64,000 nt of DNA, taken from positions 101,348 through 165,347 of the forward strand of contig CAVSGV010000005.1 of NCBI GenBank assembly GCA_963727815.1. Reading direction: 5' to 3'. Below, one piece after another: positions 6,470-63,215 of this stretch. A program made the position numbers and the translations under genes. The stretch's first letter is position 1; each line of letters opens with the position of its first letter. The notes beneath the pieces are model-generated. The model did no database searches. It worked only from the letters and a program-made list of their open reading frames with translations, and was not told the origin of the DNA. This DNA is from an uncultured bacterium (GTDB lineage Bacteria; Margulisbacteria; WOR-1; CAVSGV01).

Positions 6470-7536
<1,067 letters not shown>

Positions 7537-12267: not shown

Positions 12268-12600
12268 ATTTTCCACTTTCTTTTGCCAGACCTGCCTGCC
12301 GGCAGGCAGGAAAGAAGTGGAGCAAAGAAAGCTGGCGTAAGGGGGGGATTCCCTTACGTATCCCCCTTTCAGCGCACAAGACTCGTGCCCTCATCAGGCT
12401 TCGGGCCTCGTTTGCGCGCAAGGAAAGAAAAAAACACAATCCGGAATGAGATAACCATGGTTACCAACAGTCATGGCGAGCCAGATCTGAAAGTGACTCC
12501 GGCAAACCAGTCAGCCAATCTGGGCGCCTTGATTTTTCTTTGCCTGCCCGCCTCTGGAGGGTCACTTTCTTTGTATCAAGACAAAGAAAGTGAGAGAAGA
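12268..12600. mobile_element. MITE-like composite element bounded by related hairpins in inverted orientation
   Basis: Left ccactttcttttgcc..aaagaagtggagcaaagaaa; right tttctttgc..tcactttctttgt-atcaag-acaaagaaagtga (perfect 13-bp stem, 12562-12593). Perfect 20-bp palindrome cctgcctgccggcaggcagg at 12291-12310. No transposase. Confidence 0.6.
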
Positions 12601-12738
12601 AAGGTCTTTTTTGATAAAAATTTTGCAATCGGTAAGTGCCGGTGACAGGGGTAGCGAGCGTAATCGAGACGGGGTGAGGTGAGCCATGCAAGTTTTCTCG
12701 TCCTGCTCACGATAAGTAGATTGGGAAGAAAAGCCGCG

Positions 12739-12767
12739 TTGACTTTTGCTCTCCCGAAGTATATTAT
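12739..12767 (+). promoter_or_regulatory. Sigma70-type promoter for fliK-like operon
   Basis: TTGACT-17 nt-TATTAT followed by SD gaggagga and ATG 12785. Confidence 0.75.
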
Positions 12768-12784
12768 TTTTTGAGGAGGATATC

Positions 12785-14035
12785 ATGGCTGATGACATGA
12801 CAACGTCGGGCGGAAGCCTGCATCCGGGAAGGCCTGTAATATGGCCTACCGGAAAACCTACCTCCACGTCACAAACACAACAGACATCGGCGCAAACACA
12901 GACCCAGGCCGCTCAACAGGCCGCGAAGGCGGCTCAATCACCGCAGGAAGTCGCGCAGATAAAAGCTGCGGCCCAGGCCATTGAAAGAGGGCAGCAGTCC
13001 AGACAGTATACGCAGGCCGACATAGCTGAACTTCTGGTCTCGCAGAACATAGCCGACACCGAAACGAACAGGAACATGGCGACGCTGATGCTGCGCTACG
13101 GGGTCGAGATATCCAGTTCCAATTTCTCCATGCTTTCTTCCATGGTTGGCGGCGACACGAGCCAGACAATGCTGGAAGCCGGAGTTCTTCTTCTCATGAA
13201 AGGCGTCGACTTTCCTGCCGCAGCCAAGACTCTGGGCAAGTTCCTGGCGGAGAATCCGCAGCTTGCTTCGCAGATCATTTCCCTGAAAGGCAACGTCACC
13301 GATCTTCTTGCGGCATTGTCCATGGGACAGAACATCATGAGCCCGCAGCTGATATCACAGCTTGCCGGCGTGCTTGCGCAGTTCAACGAGGAAATGGACG
13401 GCCTGCCGAGCAAATATAAATTTTCCGGCAAAGGTTCGGCGGGAAGAGCGGACCTCTCCAGCAATGTCAGGGCGCTAAAGGCGCTGCTGGACGGCATTCC
13501 CGAGAAAAAGAACCTGCCCGACAGCGCGGAAGGACAGATAATCGAATCCACTCTCAACGCGACATCGAACAGGCTGGACCAGGTGGAGCAGAATCTTGTC
13601 GCGCAGGCCATGCTGTCAAAACAATCATCGCGGCCCGACGTGAATTATTCCTACTATCAGATCCCGAACGCCCAGGTCAAGCCGCCCACTACAGTGGACA
13701 TGATAATCAAGAGGAGCGAAAAGGAAGGCGGAAAGAAGATCGACCCGAACGATACCACCATCATCATGTCGTTCGAGACGCTTAACATGGGACGGATAGC
13801 GGTAAAGATGACGGTAAAGGACAAGAACATCGAATTCCTTTTCAACACCAACAACGATGAGATCAAATCTCTTGTGGCATCCAACTCGAAGGACCTTGCG
13901 AAGGCGCTGTCCGATAAAGATTTCAACGCTTCAAAGATGCAGGTCACGGTCAACCCGTCCATGTGCGCGATCAAACCGTTCCTCATCCCGTTCCTCGGCA
14001 TAGAGGACCTGATGAAGATAGACGTGGACGCATGA
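12785..14035 (+). CDS. FliK-like hook/needle length-control protein
   Basis: Gln/Thr-rich N-terminus; C-terminal T3S4-like domain (IIMSFETLNMGRIAVKMTVKDKNIEFLF...LAKAL); coupled to a FlhB-C-like gene. Confidence 0.7.
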   Translation: MADDMTTSGGSLHPGRPVIWPTGKPTSTSQTQQTSAQTQTQAAQQAAKAAQSPQEVAQIKAAAQAIERGQQSRQYTQADIAELLVSQNIADTETNRNMATLMLRYGVEISSSNFSMLSSMVGGDTSQTMLEAGVLLLMKGVDFPAAAKTLGKFLAENPQLASQIISLKGNVTDLLAALSMGQNIMSPQLISQLAGVLAQFNEEMDGLPSKYKFSGKGSAGRADLSSNVRALKALLDGIPEKKNLPDSAEGQIIESTLNATSNRLDQVEQNLVAQAMLSKQSSRPDVNYSYYQIPNAQVKPPTTVDMIIKRSEKEGGKKIDPNDTTIIMSFETLNMGRIAVKMTVKDKNIEFLFNTNNDEIKSLVASNSKDLAKALSDKDFNASKMQVTVNPSMCAIKPFLIPFLGIEDLMKIDVDA

Positions 14036-14358
14036 TGGCAGAAAAAGAAAAACAACCTCAACCACGGAGGACCGCTGTCGCAGTGCGGTACGACGTGGAG
14101 ATGGACAAAGCCCCACTCATTTTGGCTTCCGGACGCGGAGCGATCGCCGACGAAATACTCCGTGTCGCGGAGGAGAACAAGATACCTCTTTACGAGAACA
14201 GAGACCTTGCCACGATGCTGGCAAAACTTGAGATCGACACGGAGATCCCCGCGCAGCTTTACGTTCTTGTCGCCGAAGTCCTCTTCTTTGTTTACAAGCT
14301 GGACAAGATGGCGGAGAAGCGCGAAAAGCTGATGAAAAGAGCTCGAGAAGAACGATAA
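14032..14358 (+). CDS. Stand-alone FlhB C-terminal-like (EscU/YscU/YlqH-type) protein
   Basis: AVAVRYD....AP.ILASGRG.IADEI...AEENKIPLYEN..LA..L.KLEID.EIP..LY..VAEVL. Confidence 0.9.
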   Translation: MMAEKEKQPQPRRTAVAVRYDVEMDKAPLILASGRGAIADEILRVAEENKIPLYENRDLATMLAKLEIDTEIPAQLYVLVAEVLFFVYKLDKMAEKREKLMKRAREER

Positions 14359-14404
14359 CACTTAACCACGATCATGTCTTTACCTTAACGATAGGATGTT
14401 TTCT

Positions 14405-14600
14405 CGCGAATAATTATTCGTATGCTTTAGTGGTTTCGCGAATTACGCGAATATCAAGAACTCGAATCCGCCAATCTGCGCGAATTTACACGAATGAACA
14501 CGAATTGATCTGAGATCGCGAAGATCAGCGTAAATTTGAGAATATTCGAGCGATCAGGGAACTGGTAATTCGAGTTATTCGAGAAGTATCAATTCGAGAG
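14405..14600. repeat. Array of short cgaat repeats facing an array of attcg repeats
   Basis: About six (c/a)(g/a)cgaat units on the left and four attcgag units on the right; palindrome cgaataattattcg at 14407-14420. Confidence 0.75.
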
Positions 14601-14611
14601 GTTAAAACCTC

Positions 14612-14640
14612 TTGATTTTTCCCGTAATTTTGCCTATAAT
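14612..14640 (+). promoter_or_regulatory. Sigma70-type promoter for flgF operon
   Basis: TTGATT-17 nt-TATAAT upstream of SD aggag and ATG 14676. Confidence 0.8.
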
Positions 14641-14675
14641 CCTTATAAAAGGTCTGTCGATTAGGAGCTGATAAA

Positions 14676-15410
14676 ATGGTTGATAAGATCCTCGAAGTCG
14701 GAGGTGCGGGGATTGAAGGAGCGGACGCAAAAGTCAAGGCTCTTATGAACAACGTTGTTAACTCCGAGACGCCTGGATACAGGAAATCAGATGTTGTCAT
14801 TAAAGCCTTTCCTACCTATTTGGAACAAGCACAGGTCAGATCCAGCACATCGGTACCCCAGATCGAAGGCGTACACTACGATCAAACTCCGGGAACTCTT
14901 CTAAGGACGGGAAACAATCTTGACGTTGCCATAGGCGGCGAAGGATTTTTTGCCGTTCAAACGCCGCAGGGCGAAAGATACACAAGGGACGGCCGATTTG
15001 TGCTGGACCAGAACGGCAGGCTCCTTTCTGTGGCGGGCGATTATCCTGTCATGGGACTTGGCGGACCGATAATGGTCCAGCCGGGAGACAAGATAGAATT
15101 CACGAACGAGGGGAAGGTTATGGTCAACGGCCAGGAAATGAACACTCTCAAGGTGGTCAATTTTAATGACACATCATCTCTTCTGCCAGTTACCGGCGCT
15201 CTTTTCAAAGCGGATGACAATGCGCAGATCGCCATCAATGACGCGCCGAGGATCGTGAGCGGATACGTGGAGGCTTCGAATTCCAACGTTATCGAAGAAA
15301 CGATGAACCTTATTTATCTTAACAGGCTGTACCAGACCAACGCAAAGGTAGTAACCAGCAGGGAAACAATGTTCACGCGCGCGCTCGACATGGGCCGGAC
15401 GGCGCAATAA
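14676..15410 (+). CDS. flgF: Flagellar rod protein FlgF
   Basis: NNVVNSETPGYRK, TGNNLDVAIGGEGFFAV, RYTRDGRF, GYVEASNSN; precedes flgG. Confidence 0.88.
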   Translation: MVDKILEVGGAGIEGADAKVKALMNNVVNSETPGYRKSDVVIKAFPTYLEQAQVRSSTSVPQIEGVHYDQTPGTLLRTGNNLDVAIGGEGFFAVQTPQGERYTRDGRFVLDQNGRLLSVAGDYPVMGLGGPIMVQPGDKIEFTNEGKVMVNGQEMNTLKVVNFNDTSSLLPVTGALFKADDNAQIAINDAPRIVSGYVEASNSNVIEETMNLIYLNRLYQTNAKVVTSRETMFTRALDMGRTAQ

Positions 15411-15426
15411 TAAAGGAGGAGTAATC

Positions 15427-16230
15427 ATGTTCGAACCGCTTTATGTAGCAGCTTCAGGACTGAACGTGCTTCAGGACGAGATGGTGGACATCACGAACAA
15501 CCTTGCCAATGCGAAAACGGTGGCTTTCAAGAAAGGCCGCACCGAAAAGGAGAGCCTCTTTACGATCGAGAAAACATTCTCTTCGGAACTGAGGGACCAG
15601 ATGGCCGCTCAGGGCGTAACGCCGCCATTCGGCGCGAATGAATACGGAACAGGCGTGCGCATAGCCGCGACCCCGAAAGATTTCTCTCAGGGGACAATGG
15701 AAATAACCAACAATCCGCTCGACCTCGCGATAGAGGGCGACGGATTTTTCCAGTTCAAGATGCCGGACGAGAGCTTTGCTTACAGCAGAGCTGGCAATCT
15801 GCACATCGACAATGAAGGCGCTCTGGTTGATCCGAACGGCAACAGGCTCGATCCCGCAATAACCATTCCGCAGGGAGCTACAAAGGTATTGATAAAACAG
15901 GACGGCACGGTCTCGGTCACTCTGAATAACAGCAGCGAAATGCAGGACGTGGGACAGATCCCAATTATCAGGTTCAATAATACGGAAGGACTGCGGAGCC
16001 TGGGCCAGAACATGTACAAGGATACTCCGTCTTCGGGCGACCCGATATACGGAACGGCCAACACGGAAGGCTTCGGGTCGATAAACCAGTACTCCCTTGA
16101 AAGCTCGAACGTGGACGTGATCTCGGAAATGATGCGCATGGTAATGGTCCAGCGTATATTCGACACGGTATCAAAAGCGGTGCAGAGCTACGATGGCATG
16201 CTCTCTTCCGTGAACAGCATGAAGCAATAG
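15427..16230 (+). CDS. flgG: Flagellar distal rod protein FlgG
   Basis: NNLANAKTVAFKK, G.GVR, TNNPLDLAIEGDGFFQ, YSRAG, LESSNVDVISEM. Confidence 0.92.
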   Translation: MFEPLYVAASGLNVLQDEMVDITNNLANAKTVAFKKGRTEKESLFTIEKTFSSELRDQMAAQGVTPPFGANEYGTGVRIAATPKDFSQGTMEITNNPLDLAIEGDGFFQFKMPDESFAYSRAGNLHIDNEGALVDPNGNRLDPAITIPQGATKVLIKQDGTVSVTLNNSSEMQDVGQIPIIRFNNTEGLRSLGQNMYKDTPSSGDPIYGTANTEGFGSINQYSLESSNVDVISEMMRMVMVQRIFDTVSKAVQSYDGMLSSVNSMKQ

Positions 16231-16253
16231 AAAGAACAGCGGAAGGATGAACG

Positions 16254-16982
16254 ATGAAGCTTAATAAACTTATAATATCCTTGATGGTGCTGGCGGCGGT
16301 CTTTTCTTCCTCCGCTTATGCCGTTACCGTCAAGAATGACATCTCCAGCAGGATAACGAGCGCGATAATCCGATATCTTGTAAGCAAGGATGCTTCTTAT
16401 GAGGGCAAGAGGATCGAAGTAGAATACAAATACGCGGACAAGACATTCAATTCCCTGAAGGGCAGGAGCGGTACCGTGACCTTCGTGGTCGCGGAGTTGT
16501 ATCCGGATTTCAAACCGATAGGCAACATAATAATCCCCATACAGGTAGTGGTGGACGGCGAACCGAAAGAAAAATTGTTCATCAGGACAAAGGTGTCGGT
16601 ATATGACAATATCGTCATAGCTACAAAGCGCCTGAAGAGAGGCGACATAATAGGCACTACGGAAGCGGCCGTGCAGGTAAGGGACATTGCCACCTTGAAT
16701 TCGCAGGCCATAAAGGACATAAATATCGTTCTCGGGAAAGAAGCAAAGACTTTCATACCGATGGACAATCCGATTTACGAATACATGATCAAGGAAAAAC
16801 CCCTGATAAAGAAGAACGATGCGGTCACCATAAAGGCTTTCAATGATGACATCTCGGTGGAGGCCGACGGCATTGCGCTGGAGGACGGCCTGATGGGAGC
16901 GCAAATAAGAGTGAGGAATTCCCGCTCGGGGAAAGAGGTCATCGCGGTCATAACGGGCACGGGCGAGGTGACGGTAAAATGA
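16254..16982 (+). CDS. flgA: P-ring formation chaperone FlgA
   Basis: Signal peptide, SAF-like domain, G.ALEDG.MG.QIRVRNS.SGK.V.A. Confidence 0.88.
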
Positions 16983-17320
16983 TGAGGACAATGCTGAAGT
17001 CGAAACTTCACCGGCTGACGGTCACCGATACGAACGTGGACTACGCCGGCAGCATAACCATAGACAGGGCGCTTATCAAGGCGGCGGACATCCTGCCTGG
17101 CGAAAAGGTCCAGGTGGTGGACGTCAATAACGGCGCCAGGTTCGAGACATATGTGATAGAAGGCCGCGGAGGGGAAGTTTGCGTGAACGGCGCCGCGGCA
17201 AGACTGGCGAACAAGGGCGACAAGGTCATCGTGATAGCTTATGCGTTAGTCGACGACAAAGAAGCAAAAAAGCTGAAACCGAAGATCGTTCTCGTCAACG
17301 AAAGGAACAAGAAAAGATGA
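16979..17320 (+). CDS. panD: Aspartate 1-decarboxylase
   Basis: [38 protein letters not shown]...GDKVIV. Confidence 0.95.
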
Positions 17321-17950
17321 AGGCAAAATGTAAAATGAAAAGTGCAAATATGTTGTGCGCTACACGCGTCATAATAATGTTCCTCCTTATTTTTTCATTT
17401 TTCATTTTAAATTTTTCATTTGCTTTTGCGGATTCCATCTGGACCAGACTCAAGCACGTCGCCTTATTCGGTAAGCAAGTCTTTCAAAGTGGGGGATGTC
17501 GTTACGGTCCTGATAAATGAATCCACTTCAGCTGTGACGAAAGGCGAGACGGACACGAACGCGAACGATTCACTGGGGCTTGCTTTCAGTTCAAGCCTGG
17601 CTTCTTTTTATCATCCCAGCAAGAACGTTACCGGATCTGGCGGAAGCACTTATAAAGGCTCTGGCTCCACGACCAGGAGCAACAGCGTTACGGCAAAGGT
17701 TGCGTCCGTCGTCATAAAGGTGATGGCCAACGGGAATCTTTACATCGAGGGCGATCACAAAGTGGAAGTTAACGGCGAAACTCAGACGATATCGATATCC
17801 GGCATCATAAGACCGAAGGACGTAAGCCTTCAGAACACGATATTCTCTTATCAGGTGGCTGACGCGCAGGTTTCGGTGAAGGGGAAGGGAGTGGTCGGGG
17901 ACGCGGAAAATCCGGGATGGTTCACCCGCTTCTTCAACTGGATATTCTAA
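17317..17950 (+). CDS. flgH: Flagellar L-ring protein FlgH (frameshift near 17446; SPase I-type signal, no lipobox)
   Basis: AFA-DSIW then [57 protein letters not shown]. Confidence 0.9.
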
Positions 17951-18990
17951 TGGGAAATTTTAAATTTAAAATGAAAAGTGCAAAGTTGATGAGCGCTTCG
18001 CGCGTCATTATAATGTCTTTCCTTATTTTTTCATTTTTCCTTTTTAACTTTGCATTTGCCGCATCGCCGGCAGTAAGGCTTAAGGACATAGCGCACGTTC
18101 TGGAAGCCAGGGACAACCAGCTTATGGGATTCGGGCTCGTGGTGGGACTTAAGAACACGGGCGACACCATCCAGACCGGATTCACCAGGCAGGCGTTGAC
18201 AAATCTTCTCTCCAGAATGGGCATCGCTCCGCAGGACCAGGAATTCAAATCCCGCAACGTCGCGGCCGTAATGGTCACCGCGAAACTGCCTCCTTATGTT
18301 AGGGCAGGACAGAAGATCGATGTTACTGTATCTTCTCTCGGCGACGCGACATCGCTGATGGGAGGAACTCTCCTCATGACGCCGCTTCAGGGACCCGATG
18401 ACAACGTTTACGCTGTTGCGCAGGGGCCGGTCGCGCTGGGTATTTCGACAAGCGACATGGACGTTTCCGTCGTGGTGGAGAAAAGACAGACCGACGTCGG
18501 CCGCATAACAGGCGGCGGCATAGTTGAAAAAGACGTTCCTGTTTCCGTCGGCGACAATTTTATTTCCATAGTGCTGGATAATCCCGATTACACGACCGCA
18601 ACAAGGATCGTGAGCGCGATGAACGATGCCGGGATCTCCGCGAGGGCGAGGGACGCGGCAACCATCGTCGCGTCCATGGATTCTTCGGGAGACCAGGTGG
18701 CTTTCATTGCACGGGTCGAGAACCTCAGCATTGTTCCGGATACTGTGGCGAAGATCGTTATAAACGAACAGACAGGGGTCATCGTGATGGGAGAGAACGT
18801 GAGGATAGCCCCCGTGGCAGTTTCTCTTAGCGGCACAAATGTCACCGTCTCCACAATTGCGGGGGGCGCGACAATGTCTGATCTGGTCTCTTCGCTTAAC
18901 GCGATAGGCGTAAAGCCAGCCGACCTTGTGGCGATAATCCAGGCAATAAAATCTTCGGGCGCAATATCGGCAGACATAGAGGTGATGTGA
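17950..18990 (+). CDS. flgI: Flagellar P-ring protein FlgI
   Basis: RLKDIA...RDNQL.GFGLVVGL..TGD, NVAAVMVTA.LP, VSSLGDATSL.GG.LLMTPL.GPD..VYA.AQG. Confidence 0.93.
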   Translation: MGNFKFKMKSAKLMSASRVIIMSFLIFSFFLFNFAFAASPAVRLKDIAHVLEARDNQLMGFGLVVGLKNTGDTIQTGFTRQALTNLLSRMGIAPQDQEFKSRNVAAVMVTAKLPPYVRAGQKIDVTVSSLGDATSLMGGTLLMTPLQGPDDNVYAVAQGPVALGISTSDMDVSVVVEKRQTDVGRITGGGIVEKDVPVSVGDNFISIVLDNPDYTTATRIVSAMNDAGISARARDAATIVASMDSSGDQVAFIARVENLSIVPDTVAKIVINEQTGVIVMGENVRIAPVAVSLSGTNVTVSTIAGGATMSDLVSSLNAIGVKPADLVAIIQAIKSSGAISADIEVM

Positions 18991-19271
18991 TGGAACAGAT
19001 AACAGGAATAGATCCGCTTTACGCTATCGGCTCCAACATAAGCGTCAACAATAATGTGCGCACAAAGGCTGACGCGCAAAAGGAATTCGCGTCGGTTTTC
19101 GTGGCCCAGATATTGAAAGAGGTCTACAAGGGGCAGAGCGAGATGTTCGGCGAGGAAGGAAGCCTGGGGCTTTTTTCCGACAACCTTTATAACGATATCA
19201 TGATGTCCAAGATATCCAGCGAGATAGCTGGCGACAAATCGTTCGGATTTGAGAAATTGTTGATGCAATGA
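18987..19271 (+). CDS. Small FlgJ N-terminal (rod-binding)-like protein
   Basis: KEFASVFVAQILKEV..LFSDNLYND..SKISSE, GFEKLL; directly after flgI; no muramidase domain. Confidence 0.7.
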   Translation: MMEQITGIDPLYAIGSNISVNNNVRTKADAQKEFASVFVAQILKEVYKGQSEMFGEEGSLGLFSDNLYNDIMMSKISSEIAGDKSFGFEKLLMQ

Positions 19272-20013
19272 TGGCATTAAAGAAAAAAACAATGAAACCG
19301 ATAAAGACCGAAGAGGACATGCCGATAAAGATGGCGGAAATGTACATGCCCCTGGTGCATTCCATCGCGTCCATCGTTTCCAGCAAGGGTCTTCCTCCCA
19401 GCATAGATTACAACGACCTAGTGGCCGACGGCACCGTGGGGCTGATGAAGGCGTGGAAAAGTTTTGATAAGAACAGAGGAGTGAAGTTCGAGACGTACGC
19501 TTCTTACAGGATAAGGGGGGAGATACTCGACGGCCTGAAGAATTACAACCCGGTCCCTTACAGGGTCCAGGTAATGATAAGGGATGTTGCCAAGAACGGC
19601 TATTCCGCTCTCACAAAAAAAGGAGCAAAGGGAAAGGAAGAAGAGAGAAGTCATACGAAAAGAAAGAGATATCCGAAGAAGATTTCAAGAAAGCCGTAAC
19701 AAAGATAAGGAAGATAGTCTCCGCCTCCGCGCTCATGTATCTCATGTCGCTTGAATCCGCGCAGGATTCCGGCATGGAAATAAACGTGTCCGCCGAAAAA
19801 ACTCCCGCCGAAGAATTGGAATTCTCGGAACTGAGGTCCAGGCTCAAGAAGTCGCTGTCCGATCTTCCCGATACGGACCAGAGGGTCATAAGCCTTTTCT
19901 TTGACCAGGACCTTAGCCAGAAGGAGATCGCGTCCAAGCTGAAACTTTCCAGGAGCAAGGTCAACAGGATAATCGGCAAGACGGTGGTGTTCTTAAGGGA
20001 GAAGCTGAAGTAG
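19268..20013 (+). CDS. fliA: FliA/WhiG-like sigma factor (frameshift near 19650)
   Basis: Region 2 DLVADGTVGL.KAW..FD..RGVKFETYASYRIRGEILD; region 4 L..L....QRVISLFF..DLSQKEIA.KL.LSRSKV. Frames join as ...EEKKSYEKKEISEEDFKKAV... Confidence 0.8.
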
Positions 20014-20015
20014 CC

Positions 20016-20330
20016 ATGAGCGAACAACAGGTGCAAAGGGTCCAGCTTTTCGACGACACGTTCAATCATCTGAACGACGCGCTGGACCAGTCGACAAAGA
20101 TACAGGCCGTCATCGCGCAGAACATCGCGAACGCGAAAACGCCAGGGTATGAAGCGCTTGAATTCGACAAGGTCCTGAACAAAGCGGTGAAGAGGGCGAA
20201 CAAGAACGTCGTGTTCGAAGAAGAAATGGACTCGCTTTCAAGGAACGCCATAGAGCATGCCGCATACGTGAAGCTGATAGCGGAGAAGATAGCGGTCATA
20301 AGGACAGTAGTGACGCAGGGAAGGAAGTGA
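20016..20330 (+). CDS. flgB: Flagellar proximal rod protein FlgB (short)
   Basis: IAQNIANAKTPGY, EEEM..L..NAI; first gene of the flgB-flgC-fliE block. Confidence 0.85.
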   Translation: MSEQQVQRVQLFDDTFNHLNDALDQSTKIQAVIAQNIANAKTPGYEALEFDKVLNKAVKRANKNVVFEEEMDSLSRNAIEHAAYVKLIAEKIAVIRTVVTQGRK

Positions 20331-20335
20331 TCTGA

Positions 20336-20761
20336 ATGGGACTTAACGACGCATTGGACATAAGCGTTGACGGGATCAACGCGAACCGGATATTCATGGA
20401 GGTCATCGCCAGCAATCTTGCGAACATAAACACGACCAGGACCGTTCAGGGAGGCCCGTACCGCAGGAAGATACCAGTACTTGCGGAAAAACCGATGGAA
20501 TTTTCGGAGGTGCTGAGCAACGCGCAGAAGTCGGCGGGCGGCGTCCAGGTCGCGGAGATAAAGGACGACGACTCTCCGTTCCAGATGGTGTTCAATCCCG
20601 GACATCCTGACGCGGACAAGAACGGCTATGTTAAGCTGCCGAACGTGTCGATGGCCAAGGAAATGGTGGACATGGTCGAAGTGTCCAAACTGTACGAAGC
20701 GAACATCGTTGCCTATAACGCCACAAGAAAAATGGCGCAGGACGTGCTTACGATCCAGTAG
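20336..20761 (+). CDS. flgC: Flagellar proximal rod protein FlgC
   Basis: IASNLANINTTR...GGPYRRK, PGHPDAD.NGYV.LPNV, YEAN. Confidence 0.95.
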   Translation: MGLNDALDISVDGINANRIFMEVIASNLANINTTRTVQGGPYRRKIPVLAEKPMEFSEVLSNAQKSAGGVQVAEIKDDDSPFQMVFNPGHPDADKNGYVKLPNVSMAKEMVDMVEVSKLYEANIVAYNATRKMAQDVLTIQ

Positions 20762-20796: not shown

Positions 20797-21123
20797 ATGG
20801 TGAATCCGCCGATCCAGCCGATATTACTATCAGCGGTGGAAGATGTTGCCGCGCCGAAAGCAGCTCCGGCTCCCGTTTCAACCACGGACCCGTCGGGGAA
20901 CGTTTTTGATCAGGTGCTGGGCAAAGCGATCGACGCGCTTAACGGGGTCTCACAAACGGAATTCACGGCTGACAAGCTGATGGATGATTACATCGCGGGC
21001 AAAGCTGAACTCTCTGACGTCATGATCGCGACATCAAAAATGACCATCGCGGTCAACCTGGCCGTATCAACGATAACTTCGGCCGTAAGCTCGTTCAAAG
21101 AAATTACGTCAATGTCAATATAG
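20797..21123 (+). CDS. fliE: Hook-basal body protein FliE
   Basis: F..VLGKAID.LN.V, G...LSDVMIA.SK; synteny. Confidence 0.8.
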   Translation: MVNPPIQPILLSAVEDVAAPKAAPAPVSTTDPSGNVFDQVLGKAIDALNGVSQTEFTADKLMDDYIAGKAELSDVMIATSKMTIAVNLAVSTITSAVSSFKEITSMSI

Positions 21124-21147: not shown

Positions 21148-22528
21148 GTGGCAGAACCAACACCACAGCCCCAGGGAAGACAAATAGCGATTATAGCGAC
21201 CGTTGCCATGGTCATTTTTTTCACTTTATTCCTTGTCGGGCTCAGATCATGTTCATCTTCTTCCGATAAAGGTCCGACAGGCGAGAAGCTTCCGGCCGAT
21301 GTCGCCATATATTCCAACCTGGATCTGAAGGATTCCGCGATGGTTATCACCCGCCTAAAGGAACTGAAGATCCCTTATCAGATAAAGGACGAGGGCCGCA
21401 CGGTAGCGGTGCCGAGGGGAAGGGCCGACGAAGCGCGGCTGGGGCTCGCGGAAAAGAACCTTCCGGCGGGCGGGACCGTTGGCTGGGAGATATTCGACCA
21501 GTCAAAACTGGGAGCGACAGATTTTGACAGAAGGATCCAGTTCATCCGCGCCATTTCCGGCGAGCTTTCAAGGACCATAGACAGGATAAGCTCGGTGGAA
21601 GACGCGCGCGTACAGATAGTCATTCCCGAAACCCAGCTTTTCCAGGCGACCACCGCTCCGGTGACGGCATCAGTGCTCCTCAAGCTGAAAACCGGGGAGA
21701 CGCTGTCTCAGGGCCAGGTGAACGGCATAGTCTATCTGGTCGCGAACAGCGTTGAGAACCTGAAGCCGGCGAACGTGACCATCATCGACACGAACGGCAC
21801 GATTCTTACGGGAGCGGAAACCCCGCAAAAAGAGATCGTCCAGGCGCCGCCCGAGAACCGGCTCGTAGAACAACCTGAAGAACAGGTGGTCGTGAAACCG
21901 GAAGAAAAATCTGTCCTGGAAGTCCAGACAAAACTGGAGCTGGAGGACAAACTCACAAATAAAGTACAGTCGCTTCTCAATAAGCTCTATCCTCCGAACA
22001 TAACTATCGCTAGGGTCAACGTCGAACTCGCTGAACGGCAAAAAGATAACCGTCGTTATCCTGCTTGATAACAACTTCAGGCTGACCAACGCGCTCAAGA
22101 GGTCCACTTTCGATACGGTATCCGCCGCCATAGGATACGACAAGGACAGAGGGGATAAGATAATATTAAAGAGCGTCAAGTTCCGCTCCGCGGGAACCGC
22201 GCAGACCTATGCGAAGACTGGGATGGCGCAGAGCATATTCACGATCCAGAATCTCAAGATAATTTACAGGAAAATGGGCAGACATTCCGCATATGTCATC
22301 GCGGCGATAGTTGTCATCTTCTTCTTCATGCTCATTTCAATGTTCAGGGGAGGCAGGAAGGAAACTCCATTGGAGGCAGCCGGCGAGCCCGAAACGCCTG
22401 AAGAGGTGATGGAGACCAGCACAGGAGAAGTACCGATCGTCTCTGAAATGAAGACCCTTGCGGCGCAAAACCCGCAGCAGGTGGCGAACCTCATAAAGGA
22501 CTGGGTCGAAGAAGGAGGGGGCTCTTGA
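21148..22528 (+). CDS. fliF: MS-ring protein FliF, collarless form (frameshift near 22030)
   Basis: TM1; RBM1-2 (GWEIFDQSKLGATDF, ALSGELSRTI-like, ARV.IVIP..LF, ASV.LKL); compact RBM3 (..VSAAIGYDKDRGDKI); TM2; C-terminal NPQQVANLIKDWV. Confidence 0.88.
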
Positions 22529-23025
22529 ACGGGATAGAAAAATCGGCGGCCATCCTCTCTCTGCTCGGTGACGAGCTGTCGCACAAGATACTCGGCTACC
22601 TTCCGGAATCCGACGCTATCTCCATAATAAACGCTTCGGAGAACCTGAAGACGCCCACAAGGGAAACTCTTCTTGAGATCGTGTCGGAGTTCAACAATTA
22701 CATGTCCAATCCCGAGAACATGCCGTCCGAAGCAGCGACTTCCGGCGAGGGCGAAGAAGCATCCGCTCTGCCAGCGAACACGCCTCTGGAGATGATCACA
22801 GCGGCTTCACCGGAGAACCTGACAAAAGCTCTTCAGGAGGAGAGGCCGGAGATCGCCGCTTACGTTCTGTCCCATCTTCCCGTGGAAAAAATATATGAAG
22901 TGCTGCAGATGCTCGGCGACATGAGGGGCGCCGTAGAATCCAGGCTGATATCCATAAAAGACGTGCCAATGGCGAAGGAGCTTGAGGAAAAAGTGCTCAA
23001 CACGATATCCGCGAGGCTTTCCTGA
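22525..23025 (+). CDS. fliG: Truncated FliG (N and middle domains only)
   Basis: EKSAAILSLLG.E, EIVSEF, L.EERPEIAAYVLSHLP, RL..I..V. Stop overlaps the fliH start (TGATG). Confidence 0.82.
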   Translation: MNGIEKSAAILSLLGDELSHKILGYLPESDAISIINASENLKTPTRETLLEIVSEFNNYMSNPENMPSEAATSGEGEEASALPANTPLEMITAASPENLTKALQEERPEIAAYVLSHLPVEKIYEVLQMLGDMRGAVESRLISIKDVPMAKELEEKVLNTISARLS

Positions 23026-23759
23026 TGGGATTGATCAAAAAAGGAAGTTTCATCGACAAAGGCATACTTCTTCTCAAAGAAGAAGCCCGGGCCGTCGAGA
23101 TAAAGCCGGAAGTCATCGAAGAACCCGCCAAAGAAGACATAATACCCGAGGAGTTCCTGGAAGCGCACGCCGGTGAAGGCAAGGAAGAGCTCGTAGGGTA
23201 CGCGAAGAACGAGGCTGAGGACATAATCCGCAAGGCGATGAATGAAGCGAACTCAATAAGAGAGCAGGCAAAAGAATCCGGACTTGAGGAAGCCCGCGCG
23301 TTCGCGGAGGAGAACGCCTCCGACAAAGTAAAGGAAGCGCTGCAGACGCTCAACGAGGCGGTCATTGAGAGGAAAAAGATCATCAAGGACGCGGAAGCCG
23401 AAATATTGAGGCTCTCGCTGAAGGTCGCGGAACAGGTCATAAAATCCGAGGTCTCTCTTCACAGGGACGTAACGCTCAACATAGTTTCGGACGCCATAAG
23501 CCGCGTAAGCGACCGCGAACAGGTCATAATACGCGTCAACAGGGATGACGTCGACAACGTTAAGAAATACAAGGACAGGATAGGCAGCGTTGTTGACGGC
23601 ATCAAGAGCCTCTCCATCGTCGAGGATGCCAGCGTCGAACCCGGCGGCTGCGTCATAGAGACGAACCTCGGATACGTTGACGCGAGGATCTCCACCAAGC
23701 TGACCGCCATTGAAGAAGCCTTCCGAAAGGTCACCGCCGGCGGCGGCGCGAGCAAGTAA
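23025..23759 (+). CDS. fliH: FliH/SctL-type ATPase stator
   Basis: GLIKK N-terminus, A...G repeats, IRVN..D, VEPGGCVIETNLGYVDARI.T.L. Confidence 0.9.
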   Translation: MGLIKKGSFIDKGILLLKEEARAVEIKPEVIEEPAKEDIIPEEFLEAHAGEGKEELVGYAKNEAEDIIRKAMNEANSIREQAKESGLEEARAFAEENASDKVKEALQTLNEAVIERKKIIKDAEAEILRLSLKVAEQVIKSEVSLHRDVTLNIVSDAISRVSDREQVIIRVNRDDVDNVKKYKDRIGSVVDGIKSLSIVEDASVEPGGCVIETNLGYVDARISTKLTAIEEAFRKVTAGGGASK

Positions 23760-25073
23760 ATGTCCGAGCTCGATCTTGAAAAATACAGCCGCGCTATAGA
23801 GCATGTCGACCTGGTCAAGGTCATCGGCAAGGTCATACAGGTAGTGGGGCTCATCATAGAAGCCCAGGTCCAGGGGGTAAGCATAGGCGATCTCTGCTCC
23901 ATAAGACTGGGAAAAGAGGAGCACGAAACATTTGCGGAGGTCGTGGGTTTCCGCGAAGGAAGGGTGCTTCTCATGCCTCTCGGAACTACTTCTGGAATTT
24001 CTCCGGGCAGCCAGGTGACAGCGGCGGGACATCCTTTAAAAGTAAAAGTGGGTCCCAGGCTTTTGGGACGCGTCCTTGGCGGTCTCGGCGAGCCCATAGA
24101 TGACAAAGGCCCGATAATATTCGACACCGAAAATTCTCTTGATGCTGACCCGCCCGATCCCGTGAAAAGACCCAGGGTCACCGAAGTTCTGCGCGTCGGG
24201 ATACGCGCCATCGACGGGCTTCTTACCTGCGGCAGGGGACAGCGCATCGGTATATTTGCCGGGTCCGGCGTGGGCAAGAGCACCCTCATGGGTATGATCG
24301 CGAGGAACGCGGAAGCGGATGTTAACGTTATATCGCTGATAGGTGAGCGCGGAAGGGAAGTGCGCGACTTCATCGAGGAATCTCTCGGCGATGAGGGACT
24401 GAAAAAATCCGTCGTAGTCGTCGCCACCAGCGACCAGCCGCCGCTCATACGTCTCAAAGGCGCTTTCGTCGGCACGTCAATCGCCGAATATTTCAGGAAC
24501 AAGGGTCTGAAGGTGATATTGATGATGGATTCAGTTACGAGGTTCGCCATGGCGCAGAGAGAGATCGGGCTTGCCACCGGAGAGCCGCCTACCACTAGAG
24601 GCTACACGCCGTCGGTCTTTGCTCTGCTTCCCAAACTGATGGAAAGATCGGGAACTGCTGAAGTGGGTTCGATCACCGCTTTTTATACGATCCTTGTCGA
24701 AGGCGACGACTTCAACGAGCCGATAGCCGACCAATCACGGTCAATTCTTGACGGGCACATAATACTTTCCAGGGACCTCGCGGCAAAGAACCATTATCCA
24801 GCCATAAATGTTCCGCAGAGCGTAAGCAGGTTGATGACCAACTTGGTTTCCGACGAGCACAAGGAAGCTGCGGCGAAACTCAGAGAAGTTTTAGCCAGAT
24901 ATTCGGAAGCTGAAGATCTCATCAATATCGGCGCTTACGTCAAGGGCAGCAACCCGAAGATCGATTACGCCATAAGCAAGATAGATGAAGTGAATGAATT
25001 CCTGAAACAGGGAACGTTCGAGCAGACCGATTACGAGGAAACGGTCGAGCGTCTTCTAAGTATATTTTATTAA
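23760..25073 (+). CDS. fliI: Type III export ATPase FliI
   Basis: GQRIGIFAGSGVGKS, IGERGREV, MDSVTRFAMAQREIGL, SILDGHIILSR. Confidence 0.96.
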   Translation: MSELDLEKYSRAIEHVDLVKVIGKVIQVVGLIIEAQVQGVSIGDLCSIRLGKEEHETFAEVVGFREGRVLLMPLGTTSGISPGSQVTAAGHPLKVKVGPRLLGRVLGGLGEPIDDKGPIIFDTENSLDADPPDPVKRPRVTEVLRVGIRAIDGLLTCGRGQRIGIFAGSGVGKSTLMGMIARNAEADVNVISLIGERGREVRDFIEESLGDEGLKKSVVVVATSDQPPLIRLKGAFVGTSIAEYFRNKGLKVILMMDSVTRFAMAQREIGLATGEPPTTRGYTPSVFALLPKLMERSGTAEVGSITAFYTILVEGDDFNEPIADQSRSILDGHIILSRDLAAKNHYPAINVPQSVSRLMTNLVSDEHKEAAAKLREVLARYSEAEDLINIGAYVKGSNPKIDYAISKIDEVNEFLKQGTFEQTDYEETVERLLSIFY

Positions 25074-25089: not shown

Positions 25090-25557
25090 ATGCCAAGAGA
25101 ACAGAAACCGGGAAAATTCCAGTATCCTCTTGAGGCGGTCCTGAAGGTGAGGGCTATAAAAGAAAAAAAGGAGAGGGAGAGGTTCGCCGACAAGCAGAAA
25201 GCCTACATGACCGAGAAGGAAAAAGAAGAACAGATGGAAGAGGACAAAAGAGAAAAGGAAGGCGAGCTAAAGAGCATCATCAAGAAGGGCCCCATAACTC
25301 AGTTCGAAAAAGTTCTTAGGCGCCACGCGCATCTTGGCGTCCTCAAAAAAGACATCGACAATCAGATAGAAAAGGTAATAGACGCGTCAAAAAAACTCGA
25401 GGACCAGAGGGCGAAACTTGTGGAGTCCATGAAGGACCGCAAGATAATCGAAAAGAACAAGGAACACAAGCTGGATGAATACGATAAAATGATGAAAGAT
25501 CTTGAGATAAAATTCCTTGACGAGATCGCCACGGAGAGATTTAAGCGGGGGCTTTAG
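25090..25557 (+). CDS. fliJ: FliJ-type export chaperone/stalk
   Basis: [12 protein letters not shown], coiled coil, LDEIA; follows fliI. Confidence 0.8.
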
Positions 25558-59590: not shown

Positions 59591-60781
59591 ATGAGAGAAA
59601 CAAAAGGCAATCTTCTGATAACGTTCATCCTGCTGATAGCTCTTGCAGCCGCTGTCATCGCGTTCATTTCTTTTGTAACGGTACAGATAACCGAGACCGG
59701 TTCAAAGATAACGACAGAGAACGCGTTCTATTACGCAGATGCGGGATTGAACAAGGCGGTTTGGCTCCTTGCCAATCTTCCCGCGTCCGGAGGGGTTGGT
59801 TCCACATACAGGGTCCAGGGCAGCATGGAATCCATCGGAAAGGGAGATTACCGTTATTCCATTATTAACACGACAGATTCATACGAGGTCCTGGTGGTGT
59901 CGACCGGCGAGATATCCGGCATAAAAAAAACGATCCAGCAAATGGTAAATATCGGCGGTTATCCGACAGCTTTCAAGTACGCGCTATACACGGGTATCAG
60001 CGCGACAATGAACGGCGCTGTTAATGTCGTCGGAGATACATATATCAACGGCAATACGACCATGACCGGCGCCGCTGTTCTTACCGGCAAACTATATCAT
60101 CCGGCGGGAACCACGATCAATCCAGGTTCTCAAGCGACATATACCGATGGCGGTCCGGTTAGCCCTCCGCCTGCGGACCCGATATTGGACACAACGTATT
60201 ATGATTCTTACATAGCCACTGCCAAGACCAAAACGGCGGGTGGAGTTGATTATAACTCTCCCGGAACGGTGAATTTGAACGGAGGCATAATATACGTCAA
60301 CGGCGATATCCATGTCAATGATGTGACCACGTTCAATGGCCCCGGAAAAGTGGTGGCTTCGGGGGCTATCGTATTCAATAAGACAACTACATGCAACGGC
60401 GCGCTTGAATTCATTTCTTCCACCAGCATGTACCTCAACGATATGGTAACAGCGACAAAGACCAATTTTTATTCGAACGGCGATATCACGATAAACGCCA
60501 ATACGAGATTGGATATCGGATCGTTCATCTCCGACGGGAACGTCACGTTCACGAACTCTGCTACAGTGACCGGGCTTGTCTACGCCAACAAGTCCATTCT
60601 TCTTCAGGGGAACCCCCTGATAACCGGGGTTGTGGTAGCGACCAATGCGTCGGGAGGGGCGAACAATTTCAACGGACCGGTCAAGATAGTGTACGACCAA
60701 AAAGAACTTCCGACCGACACGCCGCATGGAATTACGGGCCTGACCGTTCAAAAGGTACCCGGGACATGGATATCGTTCTGA
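59591..60781 (+). CDS. PilX-like minor pilin/pseudopilin with beta-rich body, paralog A
   Basis: KG|NLLITFILL hydrophobic helix, AFYYADAGLNKA (PilX-N motif), Gly/Asn/Thr-rich repeats. Confidence 0.75.
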   Translation: MRETKGNLLITFILLIALAAAVIAFISFVTVQITETGSKITTENAFYYADAGLNKAVWLLANLPASGGVGSTYRVQGSMESIGKGDYRYSIINTTDSYEVLVVSTGEISGIKKTIQQMVNIGGYPTAFKYALYTGISATMNGAVNVVGDTYINGNTTMTGAAVLTGKLYHPAGTTINPGSQATYTDGGPVSPPPADPILDTTYYDSYIATAKTKTAGGVDYNSPGTVNLNGGIIYVNGDIHVNDVTTFNGPGKVVASGAIVFNKTTTCNGALEFISSTSMYLNDMVTATKTNFYSNGDITINANTRLDIGSFISDGNVTFTNSATVTGLVYANKSILLQGNPLITGVVVATNASGGANNFNGPVKIVYDQKELPTDTPHGITGLTVQKVPGTWISF

Positions 60782-60813
60782 TGGATCCGATCGTTCAAAT
60801 GGAGGGGGAGTCA

Positions 60814-62004
60814 ATGAAGGCCTCAAAAGGCAATATTCTGATAACGTTCATTTTGCTGATGGCGCTTGCCGCAGCCGTTGTCGTTTTGCTCTCTTTTGTT
60901 GCCACAAAAATATCCGAGACCGGTTCCAAAATTTGGGGTCAGAACGCTTTCTATTACGCCGACGCTGGATTGAACAAGGCGGTTTGGCTACTTGCCACTC
61001 TTCCCGCTTCCGGAGGGAAGGGTTCCACATACAGGGTACAGGGCAGCATGGAATCCATTGGAAAAGGCGATTACCGTTTTTCCATATTGAACACGACGGA
61101 TTCTTACGAAGTCCTTGTTGTATCAACGGGCGAGATATACAGCCTAAAAAAAACGGTCCAGCAGATGGTCAATATCGGCGGTTATCCGGCAGCTTTCAAA
61201 TACGCTCTGTATACGGGGATAGGAGCTACAGTGAACGGCGCTGTTGATGTTGTTGGAGACTGATATATAAATGGAGATATGACCATGACCGGCGCCGCTG
61301 TGTTTTCCGGCAAGATATATCATCCGACTGGGACCGGCATTTATCCGGGTTCTCAGGCGGTATATACCGATGGCGGTGCAGTTGCTCCTGCTCCAGCAGA
61401 TCCGGGACTGGATACATCGTATTATAACTATTACATAGCTGCGGCCAAGACGCAAATTCCCGGTGAAGTGGACTATAACTCACCTCAAACGATCAATTTG
61501 GACGGCGGCATCATATATATCAATGGCGATCTGCACATCAACAGCGTTACCACGTTCAACGGTCCCGGAAAGGTGGTTGCTTCCGGCGCGATCGTATTCA
61601 ATCAGACCACGACCTGCAGCGGCGCGATCGAATTCATATCCAACACGCAGATGTCCTTCAACAATACGCTTACGGCGACCGATACGAATTTTTATTCGAA
61701 CGGCGACATCACGGTCAATGCCAATACTCGATTGGCTATCGGATCATTCATTTCTGACGGGAACATAACGTTCACGAACGCGGCGACTGTGACCGGGCTC
61801 GTATACGCGAATAAATCCGTTCTTCTTCAGAACAACCCCCAGATAACAGGCGTTGTGGTAGCCACGAACGCTTTGGGAGGAACGAACACTATCAACGGTC
61901 CGGCCAAAATAGTGTACGATGAAAAAGACCTTCCTACCGATACGCCGCACGGCATTACAGGCCTGACCGTTCAAAAGGTGCCCGGGACATGGATATCGTT
62001 CTGA
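60814..62004 (+). pseudogene. PilX-like paralog B, interrupted by one in-frame TGA (61261-61263)
   Basis: Same 1191-bp length as paralog A. ORFs 60766-61263 and 61279-62004 are in the same frame; GD*YINGD aligns to GDTYINGN in A. Confidence 0.65.
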
Positions 62005-62035
62005 TGGATACGAATATGCAACTGGAGGGAAGCCG

Positions 62036-63215
62036 ATGAAAAGTTCAAAAAGCAATCTGCTGGTAACGTTCATTTTGCTTATAGGATTGAGCGTAGCTGT
62101 CGTCGCCTTCCTTTCTTTCGTGGCCGTAAAGATAGCTGAAACGGGCATAAAATATTCTGACGAGAACGCTTTCTATTACGCCGACGCTGGGATGAACAAG
62201 GCATACTGGCTGCTTGCCACCACCGTCGGGAACGGAGGCCGGGGCACAAATTATAGGATTACCGGCAGCTACGAAGCCATCGGCAAGGGTGACTACCGCT
62301 ATTCCATCATTACCGTTTCTTCATACGAGGTCAAGATCGTCTGTACCGGTGAAACAGGCGTCTCTAAGAAAATGATCTCGCAGCACGTCAGCATCGGAGG
62401 ATACCCGCAGGCGTTCAAGTACGCTCTGTACGGCGGAGCCAATACCACATTAGTGAACAACGTTGCAGTCACAGGGAACGTTTACATAAACGGGAACCTG
62501 ACCAACGGGACCGGAGCGCTGCAGAACGTCTATCATCCTGCAGGCACGACGATATCAGGCGGCGGATCTTGGATCGAACTTAGGGGAAGCGAGTCCTGTC
62601 CCCGCCGATCCAATATTTGACAACACATATTATCAGAACCTTATCAACACGGCCGCGTCATCAGGAGGATCGGATCCGAAATACTCCGGGACGTATAACC
62701 TGAACGGACAGACAATATACGTACTAGGGGATTGTAATATAAGCGGCAACACTACCTTCACCGGTTCGGGCAGAATAGTTGCTTCCGGCGCGATACTTAT
62801 GAATAGCAACACCGTCACGGCCGCCGGCACCGTGGAGTTCATATCGAACAGTTCTACGTCCATCAACGCGCTTTTCGACTGCGGGCTTTCCACTTTTTAT
62901 AGTAACGACTGCATCACGACCAACTATTCGGGAAGGATCGACATCGGAGCCTTCATCGCGAACCATGATCTGACTTTAAGCGGTCCAAGCGGGTGTTCAA
63001 TATACGGCCTTTGCTATAGTAACAGGACCTTGACCTTCAACGGCAACCAGGCCATAGACGGCGTGGTCGTGTGCACGGACGTCGCGGCGTCAAGCAACAC
63101 TTTGAACGGTCCCGCGACCATTACTTACGATCCGAAGGAATTGCCCGCCAAATGTCCGCTTGGAGTGACCGGTCTTGTTTGCAGCAAGATACCGGGTACC
63201 TGGGAGGAGTATTAA
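62036..63215 (+). CDS. PilX-like paralog C (frameshift near 62582)
   Basis: Same N-terminal motif. Shifted frame gives SPVPADPIFDNTYY aligning to A/B; ends KIPGTWEEY. Confidence 0.7.

Follow-up and report, generated by a model that had tools for sequence, protein, structure and literature searches.

In reduced flagella of the Buchnera type, flagellin and motility genes are gone but the basal body and the export apparatus are kept. In Buchnera this flagellar set is the organism's only one, and it is in reductive decay in an endosymbiont. In Salmonella FliF the β-collar comprises residues 271-381 (PMC11739650). It is viewed as a housing by which the rotor holds the proximal rod (PMC11739650; 10.1101/2020.12.05.413195). 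Residues 58-82 of Salmonella FlgB pack against the FliF collar, and the His72-Asn365 pair co-varies (10.1101/2020.12.05.413195). The sporulation channel protein SpoIIIAG has its RBM insertion at the FliF collar site, between strands 1 and 2 (PMC4768692). The nearest precedent for an unsplit third domain is the Chlamydiaceae FliF (∼330 aa), for which prediction gives a canonical, insertion-free RBM as the third periplasmic domain, in organisms with no motile flagellum (PMC4768692). The FliF examined here is very probably a genuine FliF that lacks the collar, with a gene that is interrupted by an indel error and that belongs to a conserved second flagellum-like system, apparently a non-rotating one. 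All genomes compared were metagenome assemblies.

In the window, which is the whole stretch of 64,000 nucleotides that was analysed, fliF lies on the + strand as two frames. Frame A (21148-22068) encodes 306 aa and has the C-terminal end ...ARVNVELAERQKDNRRYPA followed by its stop codon, while frame B (+1, 22004-22528) contains ...SNSLNGKKITVVILLD...VSAAIGYDKDRGDKI.... When the two are joined, the first frame (21148..22027) supplies TM1 (21184-21243), RBM1-RBM2 (21295-21810), a linker rich in Pro/Glu, RBM3 helix 1 (21916-21987) and RBM3 strand 1 (ITIARVNV(D/E), 22000-22027). The basic six-residue link SLNGKK (22028..22045) stands where the β-collar would be. The second frame (22046..22528) supplies RBM3 strand 2 (ITVVILLD, 22046-22069), helix 2 (22088-22135) and strand 3 (22157-22183), then TM2 (22289-22345) and a C-terminal helix (22430-22513), all on the + strand.

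The Pfam profile PF01514 (YscJ/FliF, RBM1 and RBM2) matched residues 50-221 of the joined protein from profile position 5 (E=2.1e-59), and the best solved relative was Salmonella FliF (6scn, E=2.5e-37). RBM1 and RBM2 were 37% identical to canonical Salmonella/E. coli FliF over residues 44-230. Two hydrophobic stretches, residues 13-32 and 381-399, surround a large periplasmic region. PF08345 (FliF C-terminal) was matched only at its last 67 positions (81-147), with 22.7 bits, below the cut-off of 23.8. The C-terminal helix, ...NPQQVANLIKDW, is predicted to bind FliG; its motif ...NPxxVAxLIKxW is conserved and was aligned with ...NDPRVVALVIRQW of E. coli, the Trp being invariant. The neighbourhood is flagellar, with fliE upstream of fliF and fliG, fliH and fliI downstream. 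The protein is a genuine FliF by every defining feature but the collar, and it was filed as a collar-less variant.

RBM3 strands 1 and 2 are separated by six residues in the window FliF and by 106 in E. coli. The E. coli strands were anchored by motif for this comparison, since the MAFFT global alignment misaligned E. coli there. An AlphaFold2 (AF2) model was made of P0003, the closest intact relative (72% identical), from a 92-sequence alignment and as a monomer, not as a ring. Its RBM3 consisted of helix 255-283, strands 289-297 and 302-310, helix 317-331 and strand 340-346, with pLDDT 92-97. The six-residue link corresponds to a four-residue β-turn between strands 289-297 and 302-310, with pLDDT above 90. 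Both TM stretches were long helices in the model, which overall resembles the solved FliF rings. The model points to an unsplit alpha-beta-beta-alpha-beta ring-building motif in the window FliF, with the insertion site closed. For P0119, a relative from the same class with a 19-residue insert, AF2 predicted a lower-confidence loop at the insert and not a long hairpin.

Taking any one base out of the overlap of the two frames gives a product of 459 aa, the length of P0003 and the approximate length given in the preliminary description of this locus. To place the extra base, each possible single-base removal in the overlap was scored at the protein level against 33 intact relatives. The top-scoring repair dropped one base in GAAC (22024..22027, + strand) and gave ...ARVNVD-SLNGKK-ITVVILLD with a score of 99.2. 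Repair at 22029-30, which gives the ...NVEL-LNG-KK of the preliminary description, scored 90.1, and repair in the A-run at 22040-45 scored 87.0 against the same relatives. The turn begins with a Ser that does not vary across the clade, which places the frame switch 5' of 22028. Given this Ser and the junction of P0003, NVD-SLKGRK-VTV, the NG of the turn in the window FliF is real. The preliminary description was right that a single extra base is present and that a short turn with NG joins the strands. It had put the base near 22030, and the best score moves it to 22024-27; the link reads SLNGKK and is preceded by NVD, not NVEL, the 'L' set before NG being probably Ser-Leu.

The extra base is probably an assembly indel of an error-rich assembly and not biology, as judged from a gene-by-gene comparison of the window's genome with 72% of the complete same-family genome G004. 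62/590 orthologues (10.5%) were frameshifted in the window's genome, with 76 events. Three contigs had enough orthologues to be judged, C3, C5 and C6, and each showed 1.2-1.5 events per 10 kb of coding sequence; at the genome-wide rate, the chance of a hit in fliF is about one in six. The frameshifted genes included the essential genes for MreB (94.8% identical to its orthologue), ribosomal protein S2 (twice) and DnaK, and some genes had 3-4 events. CheckM completeness, which is based on marker genes, was 70.5% for the six-contig assembly of the window's genome and 95% for G004, as would match a frameshift-rich assembly. The window has five of the events, with short runs nearby; besides fliF, its frameshift sites include 6661-6694, 19627-19666 and 56776. 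Genome-wide, homopolymers were not enriched at frameshift sites (34% vs 37% in controls), so we name no error process or sequencing platform; this is not the classic nanopore signature. An exact-word scan of metagenome contigs found no match for a 43-mer across the suspected error or for a 45-mer just downstream. Programmed frameshifting was rejected, as relatives have no frameshift at this site. The in-frame stops in the orthologue alignments involved all three stop codons, stood opposite many residues and were mostly clustered after frameshifts or in spurious antisense ORFs, and the alignments gave no evidence of a recoded stop (alternative genetic code).

Alternatively, the frameshift could be real and fliF a true pseudogene in a decaying flagellum-like cluster. 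The frameshift is present in the assembly, frameshift sites show no homopolymer bias, and fliF is not the only interrupted gene of the two flagellar clusters: those for the FliA-like sigma factor, FlhB, a FliK-like protein and FlhA are split too, the last into three pieces. We regard decay as improbable, however, since the events are spread evenly over the three contigs and strike housekeeping genes such as those named above as well. The window FliF is not unusually divergent either, being 72% identical to P0003, compared with 50-66% for other relatives, and its frame is otherwise clean across 459 codons. The contig of P0003 encodes FlgB of 104, FlgC of 141, FliE of 108, FliF of 459 and FliG of 165 aa, and the lengths in the window are identical except for FliG, at 166 aa.

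The genes around fliF form a flagellar cluster on the + strand. Its upstream half (12746..18990) contains a FliK-like gene (12746-14035), a FlhB-C-like gene (13963-14358), flgF (14676-15410), flgG (15427-16230), flgA (16254-16982), panD (16979-17320), which is embedded among the flagellar genes, flgH (17420-17950) and flgI (17917-18990). There follow the gene for the FliA-like sigma factor (19268..20013), split by a frameshift near 19627-19666 and intact (245 aa) in G004, then flgB (20016..20330), flgC (20336-20761) and fliE (20797-21123). Downstream of fliF are a short fliG (22525..23025), fliH (23025-23759), the ATPase gene fliI (23760-25073) and fliJ (25090-25557). The order of the upstream half, including panD, is repeated in G004 and in the second system of G077, another genome of the phylum. 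A second cluster (C3:364.8-375 kb) encodes a FliK-like protein, a FlgE/G-like protein of 280 aa, a FliM+FliN-C protein, FliO/P/Q/R, FlhB and FlhA. Between them, the window cluster and the C3 cluster hold the export apparatus, rod and P/L ring set (FlhA, FlhB, FliPQR, FliHIJ, FliE, FlgBCFG, FlgH, FlgI). Three cluster ORFs had no family match (12283-12645, 18999-19262 and C3:365685-366179).

When 1.84 billion representative proteins were searched by profile and the spacer between the two halves of RBM3 was measured in the matches, FliFs fell into two groups. The canonical FliFs of other phyla had spacers of mostly 70-117 residues, and FliFs with spacers of 12-17 came from other Margulisiibacteriota. 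Four families of this phylum (f34-f37) have a true FliG of 335-343 aa. Two FliFs were found in 12/12 of their genomes, and flagellins plus two FlhAs in 8/8 of those checked. One of the two FliFs is canonical in sequence, adjoins the true FliG and has a collar of 74-87 residues, while the second has a 13-residue spacer. In G077 the first fliF is accompanied by a full FliG and cheB/cheR. The second lies in a cluster that is syntenic with that of the window, including panD and a FliG of 174 aa. A FliF tree was built without the insert columns, and its root is uncertain owing to the long E. coli branch. In it one group (SH-aLRT 100, stem 0.66) united the second copies with every single-copy FliF of the phylum, the class FliFs and the window clade, and the collar-bearing copies of f34-f37 sat among the FliFs of other phyla. 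The window FliF belongs to a separate, phylum-wide flagellum-like system without FliG-C and not to an ordinary motility flagellum. This second system may have arisen by duplication, or the phylum may have modified its own flagellum into it and acquired the canonical one afterwards. The literature searched contained no description of such a system in Saganbacteria, Margulisbacteria or Termititenax, nor of a collar-less FliF with a full rod. Relatives of the class bear the names Saganbacteria, WOR-1 and Margulisiibacteriota, and some are genomes from groundwater metagenomes. To our knowledge, the Margulisiibacteriota have no cultured representatives.

The partner of the collar is altered as well. 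FlgB of the second system is 98-104 aa long (104 aa in the window) and lacks an insertion of about 40 residues, equivalent to E. coli residues 57-96 and including His72. In G077, residues 57-96 are present in the FlgB of the canonical system. Loss of both the FliF collar and the collar-binding loop of FlgB is not easily put down to error and speaks for one coherent change in evolution.

The FliG beside FliF was 154-195 aa in every class locus readable in full. That of the window (166 aa) comprises FliG_N and part of FliG_M with no FliG_C, and its stop overlaps the fliH start. Torque and stator genes were sought with profiles that a very divergent replacement would escape. PF01706 (FliG_C) was absent from the window's genome and from 37/41 class genomes and present in 4. 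PF01618 (MotA_ExbB) was absent from the window's genome and from 36/41 class genomes and present in 5. PF00669 (Flagellin_N) was absent from 40/41 class genomes and present in 1. Searching the window's genome by tblastn with E. coli MotA, MotB, FliC, FliD, FlgK, FlgL, CheA and CheW returned no orthologue, CheA giving weak kinase-domain matches only. The window's genome thus appears to lack FliG-C, MotA/MotB, and a flagellin with its hook-filament junction and cap. Genomes with only the second system likewise appear to have no stator, flagellin or chemotaxis genes. Four class genomes encode a FliG_C-containing protein of ∼500 aa next to a MotA-like gene.

We infer a machine that does not rotate and consists of a type III export apparatus and a rod. 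The second system has its own export gate (FlhA/B, FliPQR), FliH/I/J, a C-ring-like FliM/N protein, a full rod (FliE, FlgB, C, F, G), P/L rings and FliK-like proteins. Its short FliG is predicted to bind FliF and FliM but lacks the torque-generating C domain. The FliF ring would then be a static housing for the type III export gate and for a rod that crosses the envelope. With no torque passed from ring to rod, the FliF collar clamp and the FlgB collar-binding loop would be dispensable and could be lost together.

It is also conceivable that the machine rotates and that unrecognised proteins, for instance those of the conserved unannotated cluster ORFs or a divergent stator, provide the clamp and the torque domain in trans. 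The rod, the P ring and the L ring, which serve a rotary shaft as its bushing, have all been kept, the three ORFs without family match could encode such proteins, and the FliG_C/MotA-like module of four class genomes shows one possible source. But this module occurs in only 4/41 class genomes, and 36/41 are without any MotA/ExbB-family gene. FliG ends at 154-195 aa with a stop that overlaps fliH, and the joint loss of the FlgB loop and the collar fits relaxed coupling rather than replacement. Rotation is, in our judgement, improbable.

A search of 5.8 billion proteins recovered 35 clusters related to the window FliF (52-72% identity) from many samples and sources. All 35 had exactly six residues at the junction, and complete members were 442-496 aa long. 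As in the window FliF, none had an insertion between RBM3 strands 1 and 2. In four same-family genomes fliF is in a single frame and encodes 460-477 aa (one runs off a contig end), 61-72% identical to the window FliF. Their junctions read ARVNVDSIKTRKTTVLILVD. The uninterrupted ORFs include those of G001, G002 and G004, with the G004 protein at 477 aa. The missing collar reported in the preliminary description is therefore borne out. The same description had worried about misassembly and proposed looking in relatives for about 300 extra bp at the junction; they have none, and from the identical six-residue junction in 35 clusters and four genomes it follows that no ∼300 bp are missing from the window fliF. 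That misassembly dropped a collar-coding segment at the point of the frame change has next to no chance of being correct: the frameshift does lie only a few bases from the junction, but independent samples and assemblers and the four same-family genomes share that junction in unbroken ORFs, the window read-through matches P0003 in length, and a rate of ∼1.3 events per 10 kb would strike ∼16% of 1.4-kb genes, the exact position of the hit being a post-hoc coincidence.

The absence of the collar has instead evolved. FliFs with the six-residue state formed a monophyletic clade (SH-aLRT 99), and inserts across the wider FliF lineage of the window gene ranged from 5 to 49 residues. Two other small reductions of the insert were seen elsewhere in the tree. 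The lineage as a whole already has a loop of only 5-49 residues there, which the window clade trimmed to a tight turn. The evolved loss that the preliminary description had favoured agrees with this, although it was not a single deletion of ∼100 residues in the lineage of the window.

There is about an even chance that the second apparatus of the Margulisiibacteriota is ancient, that it descends from a flagellum and shed FliG-C, stators, filament, collar and the FlgB loop, and that selection maintains it whether or not a working flagellum is present as well. If so, a flagellum would here have been converted independently into a static device, for secretion or at the surface, in an event of the same kind as the origin of the injectisome. 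The case would further show, as an experiment done by nature, that the FliF collar is there to couple the ring mechanically to the rod and not for ring assembly or export. The lineage appears to build ring, export gate, rod and outer rings without a collar, which provides an evolutionary test of the collar's role (coupling under torque as against assembly or secretion), and the collar-less FliF could serve structural work as a minimal S-ring. As predicted from metagenome assemblies, this would be an undescribed and widely conserved flagellum-derived machine that bears on how flagella become other devices.

Compared with the canonical FliF of Salmonella/E. coli (PDB 6scn, 7bk0, 8t8p), the window FliF has the same two TM helices, RBM1, RBM2, RBM3 core and C-terminal FliG-binding helix, with fliE 5' and fliG 3'. 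It differs in lacking the collar, and its partners differ in that FlgB is without the collar-binding loop and FliG without the C domain. The Chlamydiaceae FliF is without RBM1, is fused to a FliG-M-like domain and is found with few flagellar genes beside an injectisome. The window system, in contrast, has RBM1-3, a separate FliG of 166 aa, a full rod, P/L rings and the export set. Classification as a Chlamydia-type FliF-FliG fusion was rejected because RBM1 is present and FliG is a separate gene.

Injectisome SctJ (EscJ/PrgK) shares the RBM1-RBM2 fold and is a static housing of the type III export gate in a non-rotating machine. Unlike the window FliF it is a lipoprotein with no RBM3/S-ring domain, and the injectisome has neither the FlgB/C/F/G rod nor the FlgH/FlgI rings, which the window has. 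Classification as SctJ was rejected on the presence of RBM3 and a second TM helix and on the neighbouring flagellar rod and ring genes. SpoIIIAG keeps its β insertion, whereas in the window FliF the same site is closed by a tight turn. The system of the window differs from the reduced flagella of Buchnera in its phylum-wide conservation, in its co-adapted deletions (collar, FlgB loop and FliG-C), and in its coexistence with a full flagellum in some lineages.

The fliG gene (window 22525-23025) encodes a protein of 166 aa that comprises FliG_N and a portion of FliG_M; the C-terminal torque domain is absent. Its stop codon overlaps the start of fliH. In all loci of the class in which FliG is fully readable, the FliF-adjacent FliG has 154-195 aa, and it has 174 aa in system 2, the flagellum-like cluster that the distant flagellated genome G077 carries along with a canonical flagellum. 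In four genomes of the class a FliG_C-domain protein of ∼500 aa immediately adjoins a MotA-like gene, while the flagellar cluster lies elsewhere (G014:C24:4206-5190, G026:C20:16535-17519, G017:C24:13194-14193 and G038:C4:4853-5827). The pair may form a separate FliG-C/stator-like module. Comparable FliG_C proteins of 480-500 aa occur in many further genomes of the phylum.

The aspartate decarboxylase gene panD (window 16979-17320) is flanked by flgA and flgH, an arrangement kept in G004, a complete genome of the same family, as well as in G077, within its second flagellar cluster. The other half of the apparatus was located on another contig of the same genome (C3:364875-375052). This region encodes a FliK-like protein (gene frameshifted), a FlgE/G-like protein of 280 aa, a 393 aa protein combining FliM and FliN-C, FliO/P/Q/R, FlhB and FlhA (each fragmented), and a second sigma factor. 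The flgD position is occupied by a 164 aa ORF, for which no family match was found.

Frameshifts also interrupt the window's genes for MreB (6661-6694, at CCCCGGG), the FliA-like sigma factor (19627-19666) and a 787 aa protein (56776). Genome-wide, 76 events affect 62/590 orthologues; with frameshifts so numerous, any one broken gene of this genome should be interpreted with caution. At the window's end, a protein of ∼390 aa is present as three tandem paralogues (59591-63215), which are 42–43% identical to a single G004 gene. The second is broken near 61264-61278, whilst the third carries a frameshift at 62583-62611 (near 62600).

A FliF with 39% identity to that of the window was found on a contig titled 'Candidatus Omnitrophota bacterium' (DATJPS010000025.1), retrieved together with Margulisiibacteriota FliFs in one search. 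It may reflect transfer or a wrongly labelled bin.

The flgB gene (window 20016-20330) encodes 104 aa and is without the central insertion of ∼40 residues (E. coli residues 57–96), which is retained in FlgB of the canonical G077 system. In Salmonella, this insertion contacts the FliF collar, the segment that is absent from the window's FliF.
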